A DNA stretch of 6,096 bases from a virus. The position numbers and the translations under genes are program-made. Shown piece by piece: positions 1 through 6,096 of this stretch; position 1 is the stretch's first letter, and each line of letters starts with the position of its first letter. Location of the stretch: positions 1 to 6,096 of the IMG/VR virus record IMGVR_UViG_3300020030_000076; one strand, written 5' to 3'. Under the pieces are notes generated by a model. The model was not told where the DNA came from. It made no database searches and worked only from the letters and a program-made list of their open reading frames with translations.

Positions 1-117
1 ATTATCATATCTTATTATTCACAAACTCGGAAGAAGTCTCAAAGGTATTACGATACTGTCACGATAAGAGTTGGAAATTCGGTCGTTCAGATTTCCAGAT
101 TGCCCGAGGTGGAGCTT
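1..117. repeat. Terminal redundancy, copy 1. Exact duplicate of 5980-6096, which marks a circular genome assembly.
   Basis: I compared the two ends base by base. attatcatatcttattattcacaaactcgg...gcccgaggtggagctt occurs at 1-117 and again at 5980-6096. The offset is 5979, a multiple of 3, so the Rep reading frame is preserved across the junction. Confidence 0.97.
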
Positions 118-1007
118 CTTCATACGTTTCGAGTTACGTTAATAGCCTTAGTTCTGCTCCCTTATTATATCGCTCATGCCGTGCGTTTAAACCCCGCTCG
201 AGAGCGTCTCTCGGATTCTTTGAGAAAGGTTGCGATCTCGTGGAAGGTGAAGAACCTTATGCGCAGATTGAGCAAAAAATCGATTCTGTCGTTAATGGAA
301 GAATCTACAACTTCAACGGCCTTAGTATTCGGTCAACTCCACCCATGTCGTATCTCCGTACCTTATTGCCCCGATTCTCGTCTGCTCGCAATGACGATAG
401 TATTGCGATTGCTCGAGTTCTTCGTGCTGTACACTCAGCGCCAAAAAGAATTGCAAAATACGGATTCATCGACTATAAACAGGATTCAGTCTTAAGTCTT
501 GTTCGTACTTATTATCAATATCTTAAGGTTAACCCTATTCTTACTGACGATGATAAGATTATACTACATTCTGCTAGGTGTCTTACTAGGTTCTGTAACA
601 GTTCTAGTGATGTCGATATTGAATCTTATATTAATAAGCTATATCGGTTATTCTTATATGTCTATAAGTTCTTCCGTAACTGGCATTTGCCTTCCTTTGG
701 CTGTAATATTGATTCTTATGCCGGTCGTATTATGTTTATTCTTAAAAAAGGTATAGAGTATGAGAAGAAAAAAAATTATGAAAGTTTACGAAATGTATTC
801 AACATACGCTCCGCTAACCCGAGCATATCGGATTGTATGTTTGCGTTGCCTGCGAACGGGCAGGAGCGTGATGTCTTGTCAGATGTTTCATGTGAAACGG
901 TTCAACTCCTTGAGCAACTCCGGTTCCGTAGTTCGACATTCTGTCGTGATATGATTAAACACAAGAAACTTAATGATGCTAATGGTGTTTTCAACCGTAT
1001 GGTTTAA
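1..1007 (+). CDS. VP4: Replication initiation protein VP4, C-terminal part. Same gene as 5307-6096, joined through the circular junction.
   Basis: The frame with codons starting at 3, 6, 9... is open from the window start to the TAA at 1005-1007 and is in phase with 5307. It reads YHILLFTNSEEVSKVLRYCHDKSWKFGRSDFQIARGGASSYVSSYVNSL... The Tyr pair Y-x3-Y (YVSSYVN, codons 123-125 and 135-137) mirrors the phiX174 gpA active-site YVAKYVN arrangement. The track ORF 240..1007 is only the tail of this gene, called from an internal GTG. The full protein is 559 aa. Confidence 0.9.
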   Translation, partial: YHILLFTNSEEVSKVLRYCHDKSWKFGRSDFQIARGGASSYVSSYVNSLSSAPLLYRSCRAFKPRSRASLGFFEKGCDLVEGEEPYAQIEQKIDSVVNGRIYNFNGLSIRSTPPMSYLRTLLPRFSSARNDDSIAIARVLRAVHSAPKRIAKYGFIDYKQDSVLSLVRTYYQYLKVNPILTDDDKIILHSARCLTRFCNSSSDVDIESYINKLYRLFLYVYKFFRNWHLPSFGCNIDSYAGRIMFILKKGIEYEKKKNYESLRNVFNIRSANPSISDCMFALPANGQERDVLSDVSCETVQLLEQLRFRSSTFCRDMIKHKKLNDANGVFNRMV

Positions 1008-1025
1008 TTTAAATATTAATTAATT

Positions 1026-2765
1026 ATGAGTGATTTTAATCCTTTAGACCGAGCTAAAATTCCTACCCATCGGTCCTCTTTCGACTTAAGTTCGAAGAAG
1101 TTGTTTACAGCCAAAGTAGGTGAAATCCTTCCTTGCTATTGGCAGATTGCTATTCCCGATACTAAGTATCGTATTTCGTCTGACTGGTTTACGCGTACTG
1201 TTCCTGTTAATACCGCTGCATATACCCGTATTAAGGAGTATTACGATTTCTACGCTGTACCGTTGCGTCTGATTTCTCGTGCACTTCCACAGGCATTCAC
1301 TCAGATGAGTGACTATATGACTAGTGCTGCTAGTTCTACTGCGAATACATCTGCACTTACTTCTGTACCCAATGTTACTCAGAATTTGTTTAATCTTTTC
1401 CTTCAGTCAGCTAATGCTGGTGACCAGACCAACACTCGTGACGATGCAGGGCTCCCTATCGTCTATGGTTCTTGTAAATTGCTTGATTTGCTTGGTTATG
1501 GCTCTATGATTGCACCTTCCAATACTGGTAAGGCTGCTATTACTAAGAAGTATTTAGGTGTTGATAATCTTGGTGATGCTGATAATCCTCTGGTTTATCA
1601 GACTTCGCAGACAGTCAATGCTCTTCCATTCCTTGCCTATCAGAAGATTTATTATGATTTTTTCAGTAATTCTCAATGGGAAAAACATAAGGCTTATGCT
1701 TATAATGTAGACTATTGGTCTGGAACTGGTGCTATTGGATTGGTTACGGATATGGTTCAGCTTCGTTATGCGAATTATCCGAAGGACTATTTCATGGGTA
1801 TGCTTCCATCTTCTCAGTATGGTTCGGTAGCTGTTTTGTCTGGTGTATTGTCCCCTTCTGATAACCCGTCCCGTGTTTTTGCTTGTACTTCCGATACTGA
1901 TTCTGTTGGCTCTATTTTGAATCCTGTCTCTTCTAATACAGTTTTTACTAATGATACTTCTGCCTCTGTTCGCTATGCTACTCTTAATTCTGACCTTTCC
2001 GCCCTTTCGATTCGTGCAACTGAATACCTTCAGCGCTGGAAAGAGGTAGTTCAATTCTCTAGTAAGGACTATTCAGACCAGATGGCTGCTCAGTTTGGTA
2101 TTAAGGCTCCCGAATACATGGGCAACCATGCGCATTATATTGGAGGCTGGTCTAGTGTTATTAATATCAATGAAGTGGTTAATACTAATCTTGATACTGA
2201 TTCTTCGCAGGCTTCTATTGCCGGTAAAGGAATTTCAAGTAATTCTGGCCATACTCTTACTTATGATTGTGGTGCTGAGCATCAGATTATTATGTGTGTA
2301 TATCATGCTGTACCTATGTTGGATTGGAATTTAACAGGTCAGGCTCCTCAGCTGACTGTTACTGCTATATCTGACTTTCCTCAACCTGCATTTGACCAGC
2401 TTGGTATGCAGTCTGTCCCTGCTCTTAATCTTCAGAATAATCCAAGTCGAAATGTTTCCGGCGCTCTTGGTTATAATCTTCGTTATTGGCAGTGGAAGTC
2501 CAATATTGATACCGTCCATGCTGGATTTCGCGCTGGTGCTGCTTATCAGTCTTGGGCTGCTCCTCTTGATGGTTGGCAGGTACTGACTTCCGGTGGTGCT
2601 TGGTCTTATCAATCCATGAAGGTTCGTCCTCAGCAATTGAATTCTATTTTCGTTCCTCAAGTTGATGCTACGAACTGTTCTGTTGCATTTGACCAGTTAT
2701 TATGTAATGTTAATTTTCAAGTATATGCTGTTCAGAACTTGGATAGAAATGGTTTACCTTTTTAA
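1026..2765 (+). CDS. VP1: Major capsid protein (Microviridae VP1 / F-like)
   Basis: 579-aa ORF and the largest gene. Its N-terminus, ...HRSSFDLSSKKLFTAKVGEILPCYWQIAIPDTKY...YTRIKEYYDFYAVPLRLI, matches the conserved N-terminal block of Microviridae VP1/F proteins. Third-position T bias is strong. The AT-rich leader has no Shine-Dalgarno sequence. Confidence 0.93.
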   Translation: MSDFNPLDRAKIPTHRSSFDLSSKKLFTAKVGEILPCYWQIAIPDTKYRISSDWFTRTVPVNTAAYTRIKEYYDFYAVPLRLISRALPQAFTQMSDYMTSAASSTANTSALTSVPNVTQNLFNLFLQSANAGDQTNTRDDAGLPIVYGSCKLLDLLGYGSMIAPSNTGKAAITKKYLGVDNLGDADNPLVYQTSQTVNALPFLAYQKIYYDFFSNSQWEKHKAYAYNVDYWSGTGAIGLVTDMVQLRYANYPKDYFMGMLPSSQYGSVAVLSGVLSPSDNPSRVFACTSDTDSVGSILNPVSSNTVFTNDTSASVRYATLNSDLSALSIRATEYLQRWKEVVQFSSKDYSDQMAAQFGIKAPEYMGNHAHYIGGWSSVININEVVNTNLDTDSSQASIAGKGISSNSGHTLTYDCGAEHQIIMCVYHAVPMLDWNLTGQAPQLTVTAISDFPQPAFDQLGMQSVPALNLQNNPSRNVSGALGYNLRYWQWKSNIDTVHAGFRAGAAYQSWAAPLDGWQVLTSGGAWSYQSMKVRPQQLNSIFVPQVDATNCSVAFDQLLCNVNFQVYAVQNLDRNGLPF

Positions 2766-2775
2766 TTAATTGATT

Positions 2776-3219
2776 ATGAGAAGTTTTGCTTATAAAAATC
2801 CCGATTATATTAAGAATGAGGTTGTTCCCGAGTTAATTGAGGATAACCCGTGTTATCAGCAGTCTGCATATGATTCAGTCATGTACGATGAAACTCCAGA
2901 CGGTGATTTGATTCAAGCTGATATGACCCAGATTTTGCTGAATCAGGAAAAATATCGTCGTTTGCTTGGTGATATGAACGTTCAGAATATCCTTGCCCAG
3001 ATGCATCCTACTCAGTCTACTGTTATGGATGGTATGACTGATGAAGAACGGTTTAATTGTGTTATTTCTCGTCATTGTCAGACGATGTCTGAAAGACAAG
3101 CTGTTCTTCAACAGCTGGCTGATGAGAAGTCTGAACTTTCTAAATATGCTGAAGCTATGTTGGCCGAGCAGAAGTCAGAGCCCGTTCCTGCGCCCGCCCC
3201 TGACACCGTTGCTCAATGA
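2776..3219 (+). CDS. Small acidic protein, possibly the internal scaffolding protein (VP3-like). Function not proven.
   Basis: The track ORF 2770..3219 starts at a TTG. The first ATG is at 2776 (MRSFAYKNPDYIK...). The gene is about 147 aa, sits between VP1 and VP2, and shows the same codon bias. Its stop overlaps the VP2 ATG (ATGA at 3216-3219). I recognise no diagnostic motif, so the VP3 label rests on size and position only. Confidence 0.55.
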   Translation: MRSFAYKNPDYIKNEVVPELIEDNPCYQQSAYDSVMYDETPDGDLIQADMTQILLNQEKYRRLLGDMNVQNILAQMHPTQSTVMDGMTDEERFNCVISRHCQTMSERQAVLQQLADEKSELSKYAEAMLAEQKSEPVPAPAPDTVAQ

Positions 3220-4331
3220 GGTTCTATGATATTGGAGAAAGCCCCTTAATGGGGCTCTCCGAGAAGCATATTGCTCCGCTCGTTCTTGGAGGCATTATCG
3301 CTGCCGGTGCTTCACTTGCTGGTAATGCTATTGGAGCGTCGTCTCAGAATAAGACTAACCAGACTAGTATTGATATTAATCGTGAGAATAATGCGTTTAA
3401 TGCTCAGCAGGCCCAGATTCAGCGTGACTGGCAAGAAAAAATGTGGGGAATGAATAATTCTTACAATTCCCCCAATGCGATGATTTCTCGTGGCTTGAAC
3501 CCGTTTGTCCAAGGCTCTGCTGCTATGGCTGGTTCTAGGTCTCCCGCTTCTGGTGGTGCTGCTGCTTCTGCTGCTTCTGCCCCTAGTTTACAGGCTTTTC
3601 GTCCCGACTTTTCGGATGTCGGTACTGCTCTTGCTTCTATGGCACAGGCTCGTGCTGCTATGATTAATGCTGAGCAGAATGCTGCTCTTACTCCGTATAA
3701 GATGCAGCAGATTTTAGGCGATACCAATTATCGTAATATTGGTGTTGGCCAGTCTGGCTATTGGAATGCATCTACTGGTAGAAAGTCCGCTTTGCTTGAC
3801 CAGTCTAAGGAATATCAGGAACTTAAGAATATGGAGTTTGCCGGTCGTCTTACTTCAGCTCAAGAATCCCAGATTCTACTCGATTCTCAAGCTCAACAGA
3901 TATTGAGTAAGTATCTTGATGAACAACAGCAGGCTGATTTGTTTATTAAAGGTCAGACTTTGGCTAATCTTTATGCTCAAGGCGCTCTTTCTGAAGCACA
4001 GTACAAAAATCAGATGGCCCAAGCTGTTAAGACTTCCGCTGAAACGAACGGTATTCGTATTAGTAACAGGATTGCTGAGCAGACGGCTGATTCATTGATT
4101 TATGCTAATATTCAAGCTAATCGTGCTCGTGGTCTGTCTTCTCTATGGGATTCTAAGAATACCAACGTTCTTAAGAATATAGAATATTCTAAGGATAAGG
4201 CTTTGCGTGATTATTATAAGTGGAGTTCTAAACAGAAACAGAAGGACGTTAACTCTTATGAATTGCGTAATGCCCTTGATTACGGTACTCGTGTTTTTCA
4301 AGGTGTTGGTAACAGTATCGGTAGAAAGTAG
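3216..4331 (+). CDS. VP2: Minor capsid / DNA pilot protein (Microviridae VP2, H-like)
   Basis: 371-aa ORF. It has an N-terminal hydrophobic Gly/Ala segment (IAPLVLGGIIAAGASLAGNAIGA), followed by NAFNAQQAQIQRDWQEKMWGMNNSYNSPNAMISRGLNPFV, an Ala/Ser/Gly-rich linker and a Gln-rich helical C-terminal half. This is the typical VP2 architecture. The start is ambiguous. The ATG at 3216 overlaps the upstream stop. An in-frame ATG at 3249 is preceded by GGAG (3234-3237). Confidence 0.85.
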   Translation: MRFYDIGESPLMGLSEKHIAPLVLGGIIAAGASLAGNAIGASSQNKTNQTSIDINRENNAFNAQQAQIQRDWQEKMWGMNNSYNSPNAMISRGLNPFVQGSAAMAGSRSPASGGAAASAASAPSLQAFRPDFSDVGTALASMAQARAAMINAEQNAALTPYKMQQILGDTNYRNIGVGQSGYWNASTGRKSALLDQSKEYQELKNMEFAGRLTSAQESQILLDSQAQQILSKYLDEQQQADLFIKGQTLANLYAQGALSEAQYKNQMAQAVKTSAETNGIRISNRIAEQTADSLIYANIQANRARGLSSLWDSKNTNVLKNIEYSKDKALRDYYKWSSKQKQKDVNSYELRNALDYGTRVFQGVGNSIGRK

Positions 4332-4409
4332 TCATTCTTCAGGACTAGAAGCCCATCGTGGCGTTTGAGCGATATACACCCGCTGCCCGCGTAGGGCCTG
4401 ATCGAAAAA

Positions 4410-4457
4410 CGGAGCGGAGCGACTTCCTTATAGGAGCGCCCCGCTCCGGTATTTTAG
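4410..4457 (+). terminator. GC-rich extended hairpin followed by a T-tract. Candidate intrinsic terminator of the capsid-gene transcript, or alternatively a structural element of the ssDNA.
   Basis: cggagcgg (4410-4417) pairs perfectly with ccgctccg (4441-4448). Inner pairs are gcg (4419-4421) with cgc (4437-4439) and cttc (4423-4426) with ggag (4433-4436, including one G-T pair), with a 6-nt loop. The hairpin is followed by gTATTTTag (4449-4457). It lies about 80 nt after the VP2 stop. Confidence 0.45.
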
Positions 4458-4473
4458 CACGTAGGTGCGCAAA

Positions 4474-4496
4474 GGCAAGACAGTTTCTGCCTTGCC
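4474..4496 (+). other. Second hairpin in the intergenic core
   Basis: ggcaag-a-cag ttt ctg-c-cttgcc gives 6+3 bp with one A/C mismatch and a 3-nt loop. It is flanked by gcac (4457-4460) and gtgc (4497-4500), which could close a larger structure. Confidence 0.5.
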
Positions 4497-4562
4497 GTGC
4501 CTATACACCCCTGTATACATTCACTTGTTAATTAAGCGAAGCCCCTAGTTGTGTGCGAAGCA

Positions 4563-4585
4563 AATTCGAGTTATCCTCTCGAATT
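4563..4585. repeat. Perfect 8-bp inverted repeat AATTCGAG / CTCGAATT with a 7-nt loop
   Basis: Read directly: aattcgag (4563-4570), ttatcct, ctcgaatt (4578-4585). It is followed by the pyrimidine-rich stretch ctccatttcttgtct. Confidence 0.6.
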
Positions 4586-4651
4586 CTCCATTTCTTGTCT
4601 ATAAACGCACAACTCACACTCTACGGTAGAATCTAAAAAAAAGAGATTTCT

Positions 4652-4682
4652 TTTGGATTTATGAAAATAGTTCGTATATTTG
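4652..4682 (+). promoter_or_regulatory. Bacteroidetes-type (sigma-ABfr-like) promoter: -33 TTTG and -7 TAnnTTTG
   Basis: TTTG at 4652-4655 and TATATTTG at 4675-4682 are separated by 19 nt. An upstream A8 tract lies at 4635-4642. In a by-eye scan of the window I found no other TAnnTTTG match. It sits about 50 nt upstream of the first ATG of the small-ORF/Rep gene string. Confidence 0.55.
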
Positions 4683-4731
4683 CCCCAGTTAGAAGTTACA
4701 ACTATTATTAACCCTTTAAATTTTTACAATT

Positions 4732-4926
4732 ATGCAAAAGTTTATTATTTCAGTTAAAGAAAAAAATACTGGTCGTGATGTTATCTCGCCTTATCTCGTT
4801 AATTCTCTCGCAGGTCTTGGACATTATTCTGAGCAACTTTCTCCGATGGGTCTTATTATTATTGTGGATTCGATTAAAGAAGAGGATGATTTTGTTGACC
4901 TTAAATCTCAAAGTAATGAAAACTAG
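4732..4926 (+). CDS. Hypothetical 64-aa protein with an acidic C-terminus
   Basis: ATG at 4732 and TAG at 4924-4926. Third-position T bias is very strong (ttt att att ... ggt cgt gat gtt ...), matching the other phage genes. It is the first ORF after the promoter. I recognise no motif. Confidence 0.6.
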   Translation: MQKFIISVKEKNTGRDVISPYLVNSLAGLGHYSEQLSPMGLIIIVDSIKEEDDFVDLKSQSNEN

Positions 4927-4999
4927 TAATATTTGGAAAATTGTAATTGGAGCTGTTTCTGCTGCTCTAGGTTATATTCTTAATTCTATTGGATTATGA
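4916..4999 (+). CDS. 27-aa single-pass membrane peptide (MKTSNIWKIVIGAVSAALGYILNSIGL). Candidate holin-like or lysis accessory peptide.
   Basis: ATG at 4916-4918. The start overlaps the orf64 stop by 11 nt, and the stop overlaps the peptidase start (ATGA at 4996-4999). From 4916 onward this frame carries the genomic third-position-T bias (act agt aat att ... gct gtt tct gct gct). Upstream of 4916 the same frame (track ORF 4775..4999) has T at codon position 2 and overlaps orf64, so it is probably not coding there. Confidence 0.5.
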   Translation: MKTSNIWKIVIGAVSAALGYILNSIGL

Positions 5000-5304
5000 A
5001 TAGTACTCTTATGGATTTTCTTGACCATTTGTTATGCTTTAACTTGCATTTTACAATAACAAGCGCTAAGCGTTCTATTGCTGAAAATAAAGCTGCTGGA
5101 GGTGTTCCTAATTCACAACATTTGGTTGGAGAAGCTGTTGATATTAAGCCGTATGGTTCTACTACTTATAATCGGTTGCTCGAACATATTCATAACTATT
5201 CAGCTAGTACTCATGTGTTTGACCAACTGATATTGTATTCTACATTTATTCATATTTCATTTGGTGAGCGTAATCGCCATCAAGTTATTGACAAGCGCAA
5301 ATAA
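4996..5304 (+). CDS. Compact zinc D-Ala-D-Ala carboxypeptidase-like peptidase (M15 / LAS superfamily). Putative endolysin.
   Basis: ...ITSAKRSIAENKAAGGVPNSQHLVGEAVDI... matches the M15 signature SxxRS-x3-N-x3-GG-x3-SxH-x2-G-x-A-x-D. The H-x6-D pair is His codon 5119-5121 and Asp codon 5140-5142. A distal FIHISF His (5251-5253) is the likely third zinc ligand. The protein is 102 aa, near the minimum size for this fold. Confidence 0.8.
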   Translation: MNSTLMDFLDHLLCFNLHFTITSAKRSIAENKAAGGVPNSQHLVGEAVDIKPYGSTTYNRLLEHIHNYSASTHVFDQLILYSTFIHISFGERNRHQVIDKRK

Positions 5305-5306
5305 TT

Positions 5307-6096
5307 ATGAAATTTTCTCCCGATTTGCTTAAGGCTGTTGGCCATTGTCAGCATCGTTCATTCATCACAAATAGGTATAATGGTGCACGTATTGCAGTAG
5401 ATTGCGGTCAATGCGATTATTGTATTCATAAGAAAGCCCAGAAAGCGTCTATGCGCGTGAGGACCGCTGGAAGTGCTTTTAAGTATTCTTATTTTGTTAC
5501 ACTTACTTATGATAATGAACATATTCCTCTTATGACTTGTAAGGTTTTGCAGAGTGATTATGAGGATGTTATAGGCATTTCGGGAGATATTCATTTTGGT
5601 CATGAATTCCACAAGTATATTCCTGTTTCTGAATATCAATGTGATGATAACTCCACTTTGCGTCATATATTCTTCGAGCAAGTACAAGGCACAGTGCCGT
5701 TTGACCGTGAAATTAAGGAATATGTTCCTGTTAGGGATAATTGGTTTCTTAGTATGGATGCTATTCGTAGTTTTATCTATAAGACGCAGTCGGTTGACAA
5801 AACGGATTATCCCGCTTCTGGACAATACGGTCGTGATAACCTTATTCCCTTTCTAAACTATGCTGATGTTCAGAATTATATTAAAAGATTACGTAAATAT
5901 TTATATAAGCAATTAGGTTCTTATGAAACGTTACATTTCTACGCTGTCGGTGAGTACGGCCCTGTCCATTTCCGCCCGCATTATCATATCTTATTATTCA
6001 CAAACTCGGAAGAAGTCTCAAAGGTATTACGATACTGTCACGATAAGAGTTGGAAATTCGGTCGTTCAGATTTCCAGATTGCCCGAGGTGGAGCTT
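5307..6096 (+). CDS. VP4: Replication initiation protein (Microviridae VP4, HUH rolling-circle endonuclease), N-terminal part. The frame is open to the window end and continues at 1-1007.
   Basis: ATG at 5307, 2 nt after the upstream TAA. My hand translation found no stop through 6096: MKFSPDLLKAVGHCQHRSFITNRYNGARIAVDCGQCDYCIHKK...FVTLTYDNEH...GEYGPVHFRPHYHILLFTN... A CGxCxxC cysteine cluster lies at 5403-5423. RCR motif I (FVTLTY) is at 5493-5510. The HUH motif (H-Y-H) is at 5979-5987. This gene is absent from the ORF track because there is no stop before the window end. Confidence 0.9.
   Translation, partial: MKFSPDLLKAVGHCQHRSFITNRYNGARIAVDCGQCDYCIHKKAQKASMRVRTAGSAFKYSYFVTLTYDNEHIPLMTCKVLQSDYEDVIGISGDIHFGHEFHKYIPVSEYQCDDNSTLRHIFFEQVQGTVPFDREIKEYVPVRDNWFLSMDAIRSFIYKTQSVDKTDYPASGQYGRDNLIPFLNYADVQNYIKRLRKYLYKQLGSYETLHFYAVGEYGPVHFRPHYHILLFTNSEEVSKVLRYCHDKSWKFGRSDFQIARGGA
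5980..6096. repeat. Terminal redundancy, copy 2. Exact duplicate of 1-117.
   Basis: Same comparison as for copy 1. The repeat lies inside the Rep coding sequence and includes the HUH motif codons. This points to an assembly overlap of a circle rather than a biological terminal repeat. Confidence 0.97.

Follow-up and report, generated by a model that had tools for sequence, protein, structure and literature searches.

A strand-specific, structure-conserved GC-rich block in the main non-coding region of an Alpavirinae-like microvirus, a candidate accessory domain of a complementary-strand origin

The window analyzed here is a stretch of 6,096 nucleotides from the IMG/VR virus record IMGVR_UViG_3300020030_000076 (positions 1 to 6,096), and the element in question is a GC-rich block at 4345–4512, bracketed by a 9-bp direct repeat. 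The initial annotation had viewed this block as a possible insertion footprint or, alternatively, as a set of origin-flanking protein-binding repeats. With respect to the insertion claim, our main result is negative: there is no insertion footprint. The block is predicted to comprise at least eight helices on the viral strand that show compensatory changes, and we tentatively regard it as a lineage-specific accessory domain of a complementary-strand origin within a replication-control region, a reading that could well be correct but is far from secure. The first 117 bases of the window recur at 5980–6096, and because of this 117-nt terminal redundancy, the window is a complete genome, a circle of 5,979 nt that is opened within VP4. 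In the ORF map, all genes are on the + strand, and the block falls within the sole non-coding region of substantial length:

5307 across the junction to 1007, + strand: VP4/Rep
1026–2765, + strand: major capsid protein VP1
2770–3219, + strand: scaffold-like ORF
3216–4331, + strand: pilot protein VP2
4332–4731, + strand: the only substantial non-coding region, between VP2 and ORF64, containing the block
4732–4926, + strand: ORF64
4996–5304, + strand: M15 peptidase

By sequence comparison, the phage is assigned to the Alpavirinae-like microviruses. Its nearest records are gut and faecal Microviridae (MG945488, 85% identity over the genome, plus many “Dulem viruses”), and VP1 is 32–37% identical to the homologs in other Alpavirinae-type phages, including Bacteroides phage phiHBP1, the first cultured microvirus of Bacteroidota (PMC13064476). 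The non-coding region contains the following features, with helices as predicted from the alignment described below:

4347–4373, + strand: first part of module M1, interleaved helices S1 (4347–4353 with 4360–4366) and S2 (4355–4358 with 4370–4373)
4373–4381, + strand: copy 1 of TATACACCC, in which 4374–4380 form the single-stranded linker between helices S2 and HA
4381–4400, + strand: second part of M1, interleaved helices HA (4381–4383 with 4389–4391) and HB (4385–4388 with 4394–4397), then CCTG (4397–4400)
4410–4458, + strand: module M2, a long interrupted hairpin (4410–4448) holding GCGGAGC (4414–4420), then the conserved GGTATTTTAGC
4457–4500, + strand: module M3, hairpin GCAC-GTAG-GTGC (4457–4468) plus an extended hairpin with stem GGCAAG/CTTGCC (4474–4479 with 4491–4496)
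4502–4517, + strand: copy 2 of TATACACCC (4502–4510), a single-stranded tail 3′ of M3 and one half of a lineage-specific palindrome
4536–4542, + strand: GCGAAGC mini-hairpin inside the invariant AAGCGAAGCCCCTAGTT, present in 174 of the 175 relatives
4547–4619, + strand: three-way junction, P1 (4547–4554 with 4607–4614), P2 mini-hairpin GCGAAGC (4555–4561) and P3 (4563–4570 with 4578–4585, loop TTATCCT)
4635–4682, + strand: A-run (4635–4642) and Bacteroides-type promoter, TTTG (4652–4655)-N19-TATATTTG (4675–4682)

The helices were assessed in 175 sequences with pairwise identities below 97%, aligned by MAFFT without structural information; a further test, in which alignment columns were shuffled 500 times or the 3′ partners were slid, was run on 26 diverse core sequences. 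In these 26 sequences, 92.6% of the cells are paired, compared with 88.7 ± 0.3% after shuffling (none of the 500 shuffles reaches the observed value) and 33–47% with slid partners, and cells in which both partners have changed number 40 against 10.8 expected (0/500 shuffles). In the full 175-sequence alignment, eight helices each beat all 500 column shuffles:

S2, 4355–4358 with 4370–4373: 98–100% of cells paired
HA, 4381–4383 with 4389–4391: 98–100%
HB, 4385–4388 with 4394–4397: 98–100%
M3a, 4457–4460 with 4465–4468: 98–100%
M3b, 4474–4479 with 4491–4496: 94%
P1, 4547–4554 with 4607–4614: 98–100%
P2, 4555–4556 with 4560–4561: 98–100%
P3, 4563–4570 with 4578–4585: 98–100%

The folded strand can be identified as the + strand because G.T cells far outnumber A.C cells (711 against 98). 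The thermodynamic comparison of the two strands is not discriminating (z = −4.4 versus −5.1), with the single-strand fold at z = −4.4 relative to shuffled sequences under DNA parameters. Substitutions within the helices are diverse. Position pair 4358:4370 of S2 occurs as GC, AT, and CG; S1 takes the forms GAAGCC/GGCGTT, AGAGCC/GGCTCT, and AAGGCC/GGCCT; in HA and HB, the changes are CG/TA/GC at 4381:4391, CG/GC at 4386:4396, and CG/TA at 4388:4394, and the CCTG that follows at 4397–4400 is invariant in 13 GenBank relatives. In M3, the pair 4459:4466 is AT in 131 sequences and GC in 44, with no G.T, and the stem GGCAAG/CTTGCC is replaced by GGCAGGT/ACCTGCC; the extended hairpin is closed by pairs between 4469–4470 and 4499–4500, and GCGCAAAGGC is conserved and unpaired. 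Most of the helices that switch between AT and GC do so with about 0% G.T intermediates. The two interleaved sets, S1/S2 and HA/HB, would form either two small pseudoknots or alternative, mutually exclusive folds. The long hairpin of M2 is not universal: in a subgroup (L077, L016, L157, and L383), its 3′ arm is replaced by a second GCGAAGC, with GGAGCGAAGCGAC, GGAGCGRAGCGAC, and GGTAnTTTAGC retained. Long-range pairings proposed by single-sequence minimum free energy folding or RNAalifold (4351–4354 with 4394–4397, 4411–4420 with 4535–4544, and 4447–4450 with 4494–4497) involve only invariant columns or conflict with the covarying local helices, and are neither supported nor excluded.

The conservation of the region does not come with a conserved reading frame: 129 of the 175 relatives have no stop-free frame across it, indels do not come in multiples of 3, and third positions show no bias. 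The coding potential of an ORF at 4358–4531 was accordingly rejected. “Hypothetical protein” CDSs are annotated across parts of the region in several GenBank records (Dulem viruses 242, 254, and 255, and OP549867; 258–584 in L005, 160–312 in L004 and L007, and 595–891 in L003), and because there is no conserved frame, these calls look spurious.

A second property of the region is the accumulation of the mini-hairpin motif GCGRAGC, which occupies three fixed sites, 4414, 4536, and 4555. Within the region, the + strand carries 5.55 copies per kb and the − strand 0.05, compared with 0.10 per kb elsewhere in the genomes; the enrichment is 54-fold and the strand bias about 100:1. The motif within M2 (4414) is present in 174 of the 175 relatives; the GCGAAGC version occurs just twice in the genome, at 4536 and 4555. 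The outer pair of P2 covaries (GCGAAGC, CCGAAGG, ACGAAGT), and the variants of P2 remain within the DNA mini-hairpin families (83% C-GNA-G and 11% C-GNNA-G). Such motifs have an extraordinary stability in DNA that is much reduced in RNA, and single-strand-binding protein (SSB) binds them poorly (PMC13037366). In the G4 work, SSB binding was restored by a change of GCGAAGC to GCAAAGC. Reported locations of the motifs include the complementary-strand priming hairpins of G4 (GCGAAAGC) and St-1/alpha3 (GCGTTAGC), as well as ssiA of RSF1010 (CCGAAGG) and the single-strand promoters of N4 (GCGGAGC) (PMC13037366).

The sequence features that had suggested an insertion are all real. The 9-mer TATACACCC is located at 4373–4381 and 4502–4510, and TATACACC has just these two exact copies in the genome (4373 and 4502), both on the + strand; the 120 nt between them (4382–4501) are 60.0% G+C compared with 40.4% for the genome, a value that is reached by 0.17% of the 120-nt windows and has its genome maximum at this very block; both strong hairpins (4410–4448 and 4474–4496) are inside the interval; the nested GAAGCCC repeat is found at 4348 and 4538, and the palindrome TATACA-CCCC-TGTATA at 4502–4517; and there are no terminal inverted repeats around the block. 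What does not hold is the notion that the 9-mer repeat is unlikely by chance, given that the probability of at least one such pair in a 400-nt region of the same composition is about 0.29, and that 12 exact 9-mer direct pairs within 200 nt occur genome-wide versus about 7 expected. Among 214 unique homologous regions, copy 2 is TATACACCC in 83 (39%), TATACACCT in 71, and TATACCCC(T/C) in 34, and two exact copies are present in 80. What the relatives share is not the exact repeat but the shorter TATAC(A)CC, at two positions that do not vary; both of these copies are unpaired and directly 3′ of helices S2 and M3c, and within copy 1, GATATACACCCGC is nearly invariant. The palindrome is absent in about 11% of the relatives and shows no compensatory change.

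Could the block nevertheless be the trace of a small non-autonomous element, either MITE-like or related to the ssDNA-active IS200/IS605 transposons, with a 9-bp target duplication? A direct 9-mer does flank a GC-rich segment, and the region has a modular build, in which relatives differ by the presence or absence of parts and by other inserts (L149/L014, a 35–40-nt hairpin in L002/L013/L125, and a triplicated unit in L072). Outside this locus, however, the core was found in none of the 120 genome and none of the 120 metagenome matches listed, CRISPR spacers aside. Specifically, a search of metagenomes with a 22-base core motif listed 120 matches, on contigs of at most 10.3 kb, of which 117 fall in microvirus intergenic regions and 3 in CRISPR spacers. 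The 120 matches listed for the 16-base motif GATATACACCCGCNGCC among 185,579 prokaryotic genomes are all chance hits, none accompanied by the rest of the region. The possibility that the core is a dispersed repeat was not borne out: among the matches listed, only post-pilot intergenic regions of microviruses and CRISPR spacers contain it. In one Bacteroidetes metagenome-assembled chromosome (L185, 3295–5021), the 16-base motif occurs four times at an exact spacing of 570 nt, in a tandem repeat unrelated to the phage element. The block itself was detected by motif scans in more than 125 IMG/VR microvirus contigs, and it occupies the same place in all GenBank relatives. The 7–9 kb IMG/VR contigs were considered as potential proviruses and rejected, being concatemers or inverted chimeras. 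Several public contigs of the lineage (L364, L300, L034, and L125) are inverted-repeat chimeras with breakpoints at the hairpins (in L364, inside M2), which are probably amplification or assembly artefacts caused by strong ssDNA structure.

Relatives that lack the core (L130, L156, L135, L144, and L149) provide further evidence against an insertion. None has an empty site with a single TATACACCC, and the indel boundaries are located elsewhere than at the 9-mers. In L130, the left module is missing as a clean 55-nt indel (~4345–4400) that starts 28 nt upstream of copy 1, whereas the right module is replaced by unrelated sequence, not excised, and the central hairpin alone is kept. In L156, L135, and L144, TTTTTCCGAAAGTATCGT comes after an ordinary T-run hairpin. 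L149 carries a different 150-nt insert, and L014 has both this insert and the core. The core-less relatives retain a T-run hairpin, a CGAAAG mini-hairpin core, and the junction. The pattern shows a modular region in which the 9-mers are not duplication scars. In addition, the flank upstream of copy 1 (4347–4372) belongs to the same conserved, covarying unit, copy 2 is poorly conserved as an exact repeat, and the end-proximal hairpins, GCCC-GCGTA-GGGC and GGCAAG...CTTGCC, are unrelated. Purifying selection on the block is stronger than on the genes: in comparisons with GenBank relatives, the identity of the block exceeds that of the genome in every one (90.9% versus 85.4%, 84.7% versus 81.6%, 81.8% versus 76.7%, 78.9% versus 74.9%, and 74.1% versus 70.6%). 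Taken together with the chance level of the 9-mer repeat, these observations make a mobile insertion extremely improbable, and the target-site duplication proposed at the outset is contradicted by the confinement of the core to one locus among the matches listed, the lack of an empty site, and the position of the indel ends away from the 9-mers.

A separate position, 4520–4530, between M3 and the junction, is a hot spot for small insertions in the relatives. An extra hairpin of 35–40 nt (e.g., CCCTAGATCTATTAGTAATGGATCTAGG) is inserted there in L002, L013, L125, L102, L093, L049, and L086; a 27-nt unit, ACTTTGTCAAGTCCAGGACTTAC, is present in three tandem copies in L072 and in one copy in L027, and L141 is also among the variants.

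Downstream of the block, the three-way junction shows many compensatory changes and is present in all relatives, including the core-less ones. Its helix P3 is followed by a single-stranded pyrimidine tract that contains CTTGTC (4594–4599) and an AT-rich run; CTTGTC is invariant in the lineage of the window, with CTTGCC, CTCGTC, and CTTGTT in distant matches, and the 3′ flank of the junction, AACTCACAC (4611–4619), is invariant as well. A covariance model (R1) built from the lineage of the window alone had its best match on the coding strand of the post-pilot non-coding region in all 6 distant Alpavirinae (with VP1 32–37% identical), namely, phiHBP1 (E = 9e-8), mar63 (E = 0.0025), and Dulem viruses 232 (E = 0.004), 263 (E = 0.043), 220 (E = 0.089), and 245 (E = 0.14); weak matches were obtained in 3 of 5 still more distant genomes. 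Across the Alpavirinae (the window, L411, and L412–L418), the shared traits of the junction are a mini-hairpin, a hairpin with a TTAAT or TTATC loop, the CTTGTC tract, and a GTGACA or CTCACA flank. In the distant genomes, the sequence upstream of the junction is unrelated to the block, often GC-rich and rich in mini-hairpins, and the TAnnTTTG promoter is located downstream. In phiHBP1 (L411), the junction occupies 2328–2406 on the − strand, inside an annotated “hypothetical protein” CDS (2326–2736) that is probably spurious because the element lies within it.

The block is thus situated between the last late gene and the only promoter. The pattern TTTG-N17-23-TAnnTTTG has a sole match on either strand of the genome, and this match is conserved in the relatives; a single promoter implies one genome-length transcription unit that runs from ~4690 around the circle to the hairpins after VP2. 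The hairpin of M2 followed by GGTATTTTAG is the sole terminator-like site found by a scan of 4200–4800, with four T only and with the hairpin absent in the subgroup mentioned above; it may act as a transcription terminator. Given their location between this terminator-like hairpin and the only promoter, M3 and the junction are probably little transcribed.

This layout brings up the alternative that the conserved structure functions in RNA, that is, M1 and M2, with or without M3, would be the structured 3′ end of the genome-length late mRNA and could function in intrinsic termination, stabilize the message by stopping 3′ exonucleases, or give rise to a 3′-UTR-derived small RNA (sRNA) with single-stranded AUACACC seeds. 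In phiX174, terminator hairpins block 3′ exonucleases and stabilize the mRNA. The structured strand is the mRNA sense; M2 with its T-run is the single terminator-like site nearby, and the core-less relatives have a classical T-run hairpin at the same place; many G.U pairs are tolerated in M2; the interleaved helices look like pseudoknots; the same heptamer makes up both of the best-conserved unpaired stretches, a feature also possible for sRNA seeds; and the RNA fold has a z-score of −4.2. Several observations are at odds with this scenario. The putative RNA has no promoter of its own, M3 and copy 2 are downstream of the putative terminator, and the long M2 hairpin is missing in the subgroup that keeps GGAGCGAAGCGAC and GGTAnTTTAGC. 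G.U intermediates are lacking in most of the covarying pairs, and GNA-triloop mini-hairpins are weak in RNA (PMC13037366). A search of Rfam 15, with the whole genome or the region alone, detected nothing in 4332–4650 at E up to 10, and a separate scan showed no tRNA or tmRNA. On balance, we consider a primarily RNA-level function unlikely, albeit a serious contender. An RNA anti-CRISPR was examined as well, given that the type I-C repeat described below shares ACACCC...GGG...GAAAC with 4376–4410; HA and HB pair those bases differently, and the resemblance was judged to be due to chance.

The other suggestion of the initial annotation, that the repeats flank an origin, fared differently in its two parts. 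The block does sit in an apparent replication-control region, so that an association of the repeats with an origin is compatible with the explanation that we prefer; a role as essential Rep iterons is argued against by close relatives with similar Rep genes and no core. A more general version has TATAC(A)CC as iteron-like sites bound by the phage Rep (VP4) or by some other protein that would aid a viral-strand origin, with the nick in CTTGTC. On the viral strand, both conserved direct copies keep their positions, 3′ of a helix in each case, the universal junction contains a phiX174-like CTTG and an AT-rich tract, and the region is just upstream of the Rep-encoding operon. Nevertheless, L130, with ~77–87% DNA identity through the VP4/VP1 region, lacks both copies, which moreover are 85 and 215 nt from CTTGTC rather than adjacent to it, and such repeats are lacking in distant Alpavirinae that share the junction. 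We know of no iterons for the gpA-type Reps of microviruses. Such binding sites therefore appear quite improbable.

The palindrome raises yet another option, a dif-like attP for XerC/XerD-mediated lysogeny that perhaps would fold in ssDNA as the attP of CTX-phi does. We take TATACA/TGTATA to correspond to the spacer of E. coli dif, and GGTGCGCAAAG in the region presumably resembles the XerC arm GGTGCGCATAA. Proviruses of Alpavirinae with dif-like sites on either side are known from the literature (PMC3091885). Against this possibility, the 28-bp dif consensus (two 11-bp arms and a 6-bp spacer) has 0 matches in the whole genome with up to 3 mismatches, the dif-like pieces are 40–60 nt apart with no covarying helix to juxtapose them, and the TGTATA arm is missing in ~11% of the relatives. 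No integrated copy was seen among the collection matches listed, although no protein-based prophage search was made, and the cultured relative phiHBP1 did not lysogenize (PMC13064476). We regard an attachment site as very improbable.

The three metagenomic contigs that match the core motif outside phages (L376, L301, and L357) are host CRISPR arrays, with the protospacers mapped as follows:

4368–4403, − strand: CRISPR protospacers, one type I-C with a TTC PAM and one type II with a Bacteroides fragilis-like 47-nt repeat

The same type I-C repeat (reverse complement GTCACACCCTGCGTGGGTGTGTGGATTGAAAC) is found in L376 and L301; in L376, the array (~600–1250) is next to cas genes (1493–5593) that encode Cas8c, Cas7, Cas4, and Cas1c. 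The protospacer of these arrays has the expected TTC PAM, and further spacers match VP4 (~379) and VP2 (~3731). The 47-nt repeat of L357 differs by one mismatch from the Bacteroides fragilis 638R repeat BfragL47-II, and its spacer is identical to the window at all 30 positions of 4368–4397. These spacer matches point to Bacteroides as the probable host.

The preferred reading, a complementary-strand origin domain, starts from the consideration that an ssDNA phage needs an SSB-resistant folded signal on the packaged strand and that a genome with a single non-coding region has one place for it. The need for a hairpin-type complementary-strand origin has been stated as a principle for microviruses (PMC9865509). 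The block can be read as single-strand-origin-like because it is strand-specific, conserved in structure, GC-rich, rich in mini-hairpins, modular, and dispensable; as a multi-hairpin domain that some relatives do without, it resembles the exchangeable single-strand origin (sso) cassettes of plasmids. The layout is shared by distant Alpavirinae, in which the junction is preceded by unrelated sequence that is GC-rich or contains mini-hairpins. From these properties we infer the following course of events. After injection, host SSB would coat the circular viral (+) strand, and the GC-rich helices and very stable GCGRAGC mini-hairpins would resist melting and remain exposed. The host priming machinery (primase, a PriA-type primosome, or RNA polymerase) might then recognize the hairpins and start the complementary strand, with the two TATAC(A)CC linkers, 3′ of helices, as candidate recognition or start sites. 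The hairpin origins of G4, St-1, and alpha3 operate in this manner, and so do the ssi/sso signals of rolling-circle plasmids. The M2 hairpin and T-run would probably also terminate the genome-length transcript, and the junction (4547–4614), as the universal core element, may be the viral-strand origin. The resulting order would be f1-like, namely, terminator, (−) origin, (+) origin, and promoter.

Several considerations weigh against this reading. The mRNA is of the same sense as the viral strand, so that all structural arguments hold equally for RNA; M1 is upstream of the terminator-like hairpin and would fall in the 3′ UTR; the interleaved S1/S2 and HA/HB helices appear more typical of RNA pseudoknots or switches; and M2 is rich in G.T (G.U) pairs, at 13–21% of the cells in four positions. 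The existence of core-less relatives implies that the core is not essential, so that the essential (−) origin could be the junction, with another role for the core. Furthermore, mini-hairpins also flank the (+) origin of phiX174 (CCCCGAAGGGG) and hence do not discriminate between origin types. The hairpins contain no recognizable mimic of a Bacteroides promoter; an M13-style mimic was sought and rejected, with only a weak sigma-70-like match on the − strand (4478–4451) and no TAnnTTTG.

A broader generalization, which is possible but leans to the doubtful side, is that the Alpavirinae post-pilot region combines a family-wide structured ssDNA element, the junction, perhaps the Rep nicking origin, with interchangeable, host-adapted GC-rich priming cassettes, of which the block would be one. 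If this is the case, such cassettes would represent a new class of complementary-strand origin recognized by Bacteroides replication proteins. To our knowledge, mapping of either replication origin has been confined to the phiX174/G4 group. In the mammalian gut, microviruses of the Alpavirinae type rank among the most common ssDNA phages. The present analysis provides coordinates and testable structures for the two candidate origins and separates the universal part from the exchangeable accessory. It also identifies invariant motifs that are well suited as markers of the lineage and for assigning hosts through CRISPR, in a region that is repeatedly mis-annotated as “hypothetical protein” genes. 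A culturable system exists in phiHBP1 on B. fragilis. We found no description of the region in the literature on Alpavirinae and phiHBP1. It may figure without a name among the motifs of large automated catalogues (PMC10690425), and the one similar proposal concerns simple hairpins of other microvirus clades (PMC9865509).

Among known systems, we infer that the element belongs with the single-strand initiation signals of ssDNA replicons. The origins of G4, St-1, phiK, and alpha3 are likewise clusters of stable hairpins on the viral strand of an intergenic region. G4-type origins are used by host factors alone, with host primase making the primer on SSB-coated ssDNA from a defined triplet beside hairpin I. 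A further likeness may be the conserved CTG directly 3′ of a GC-rich hairpin (here 4398–4400, 3′ of HB), CTG being the start triplet in G4. G4-type origins also have a DNA mini-hairpin of the GCGNAGC or GCGNNAGC type at the priming hairpin (PMC13037366), as found here at 4414, 4536, and 4555. Unlike the G4 group, the phage has a host in the phylum Bacteroidota, and the block is dispensable in some close relatives; its architecture combines interleaved helix sets, long hairpins, and a three-way junction, whereas the G4 group has three tandem hairpins. BLAST matches to the region came from Alpavirinae-like phages only, without Bullavirinae and with no apparent similarity to G4, St-1, or alpha3, in a search that involved no direct alignment of the origins. 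The comparison is therefore one of “works like”, by analogy, not of homology.

The intergenic region of f1/M13 offers a similar parallel, as a single non-coding region with a terminator hairpin and (−) and (+) origins, upstream of the promoter of a replication gene. The filamentous phages are unrelated, and their (−) origin mimics a sigma-70 promoter, whereas no Bacteroides mimic is seen here; we know of no packaging-signal role for such a region in microviruses. The ssoA/T/U/W and single-strand initiation (ssi) sites of rolling-circle plasmids are, like the block, non-coding, strand- or orientation-specific, folded, host-adapted, modular, exchangeable, and non-essential, and the mini-hairpin of RSF1010 ssiA, CCGAAGG, is the commonest P2 variant here. 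The block differs from them in its phage rather than plasmid context and shows no similarity to the RS_B/CS-6 or ssiA sequences.

The comparison with the phiX174 origin concerns 4547–4619, not the GC-rich block. The Rep cleavage site of phiX174, CAACTTG|ATATTAATAAC (nick 4305/4306), is resembled by the CTTGTC, AT-rich run, and AAC of the junction, and phiX174 also has a GAA-triloop hairpin, CCCCGAAGGGG, 25 nt downstream of the nick site; only the tetramer and the base composition are shared, and the phiX174 origin is inside gene A, not in a junction. A closer match to the phiX174 origin core (14/15), ATTGATATTAATAAC at 2157–2171 on the − strand, was dismissed as a chance occurrence, being on the non-viral strand, inside VP1 (codons VININ), and variable at synonymous sites. 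The closest precedent within the microviruses comes from the reekeekee- and roodoodooviruses, in which intergenic hairpins with compensatory substitutions are candidate sites of negative-strand initiation (PMC9865509). These phages have one or two simple hairpins, compared with the ~290-nt composite described here, in which a family-wide junction is joined to a variable GC-rich domain.

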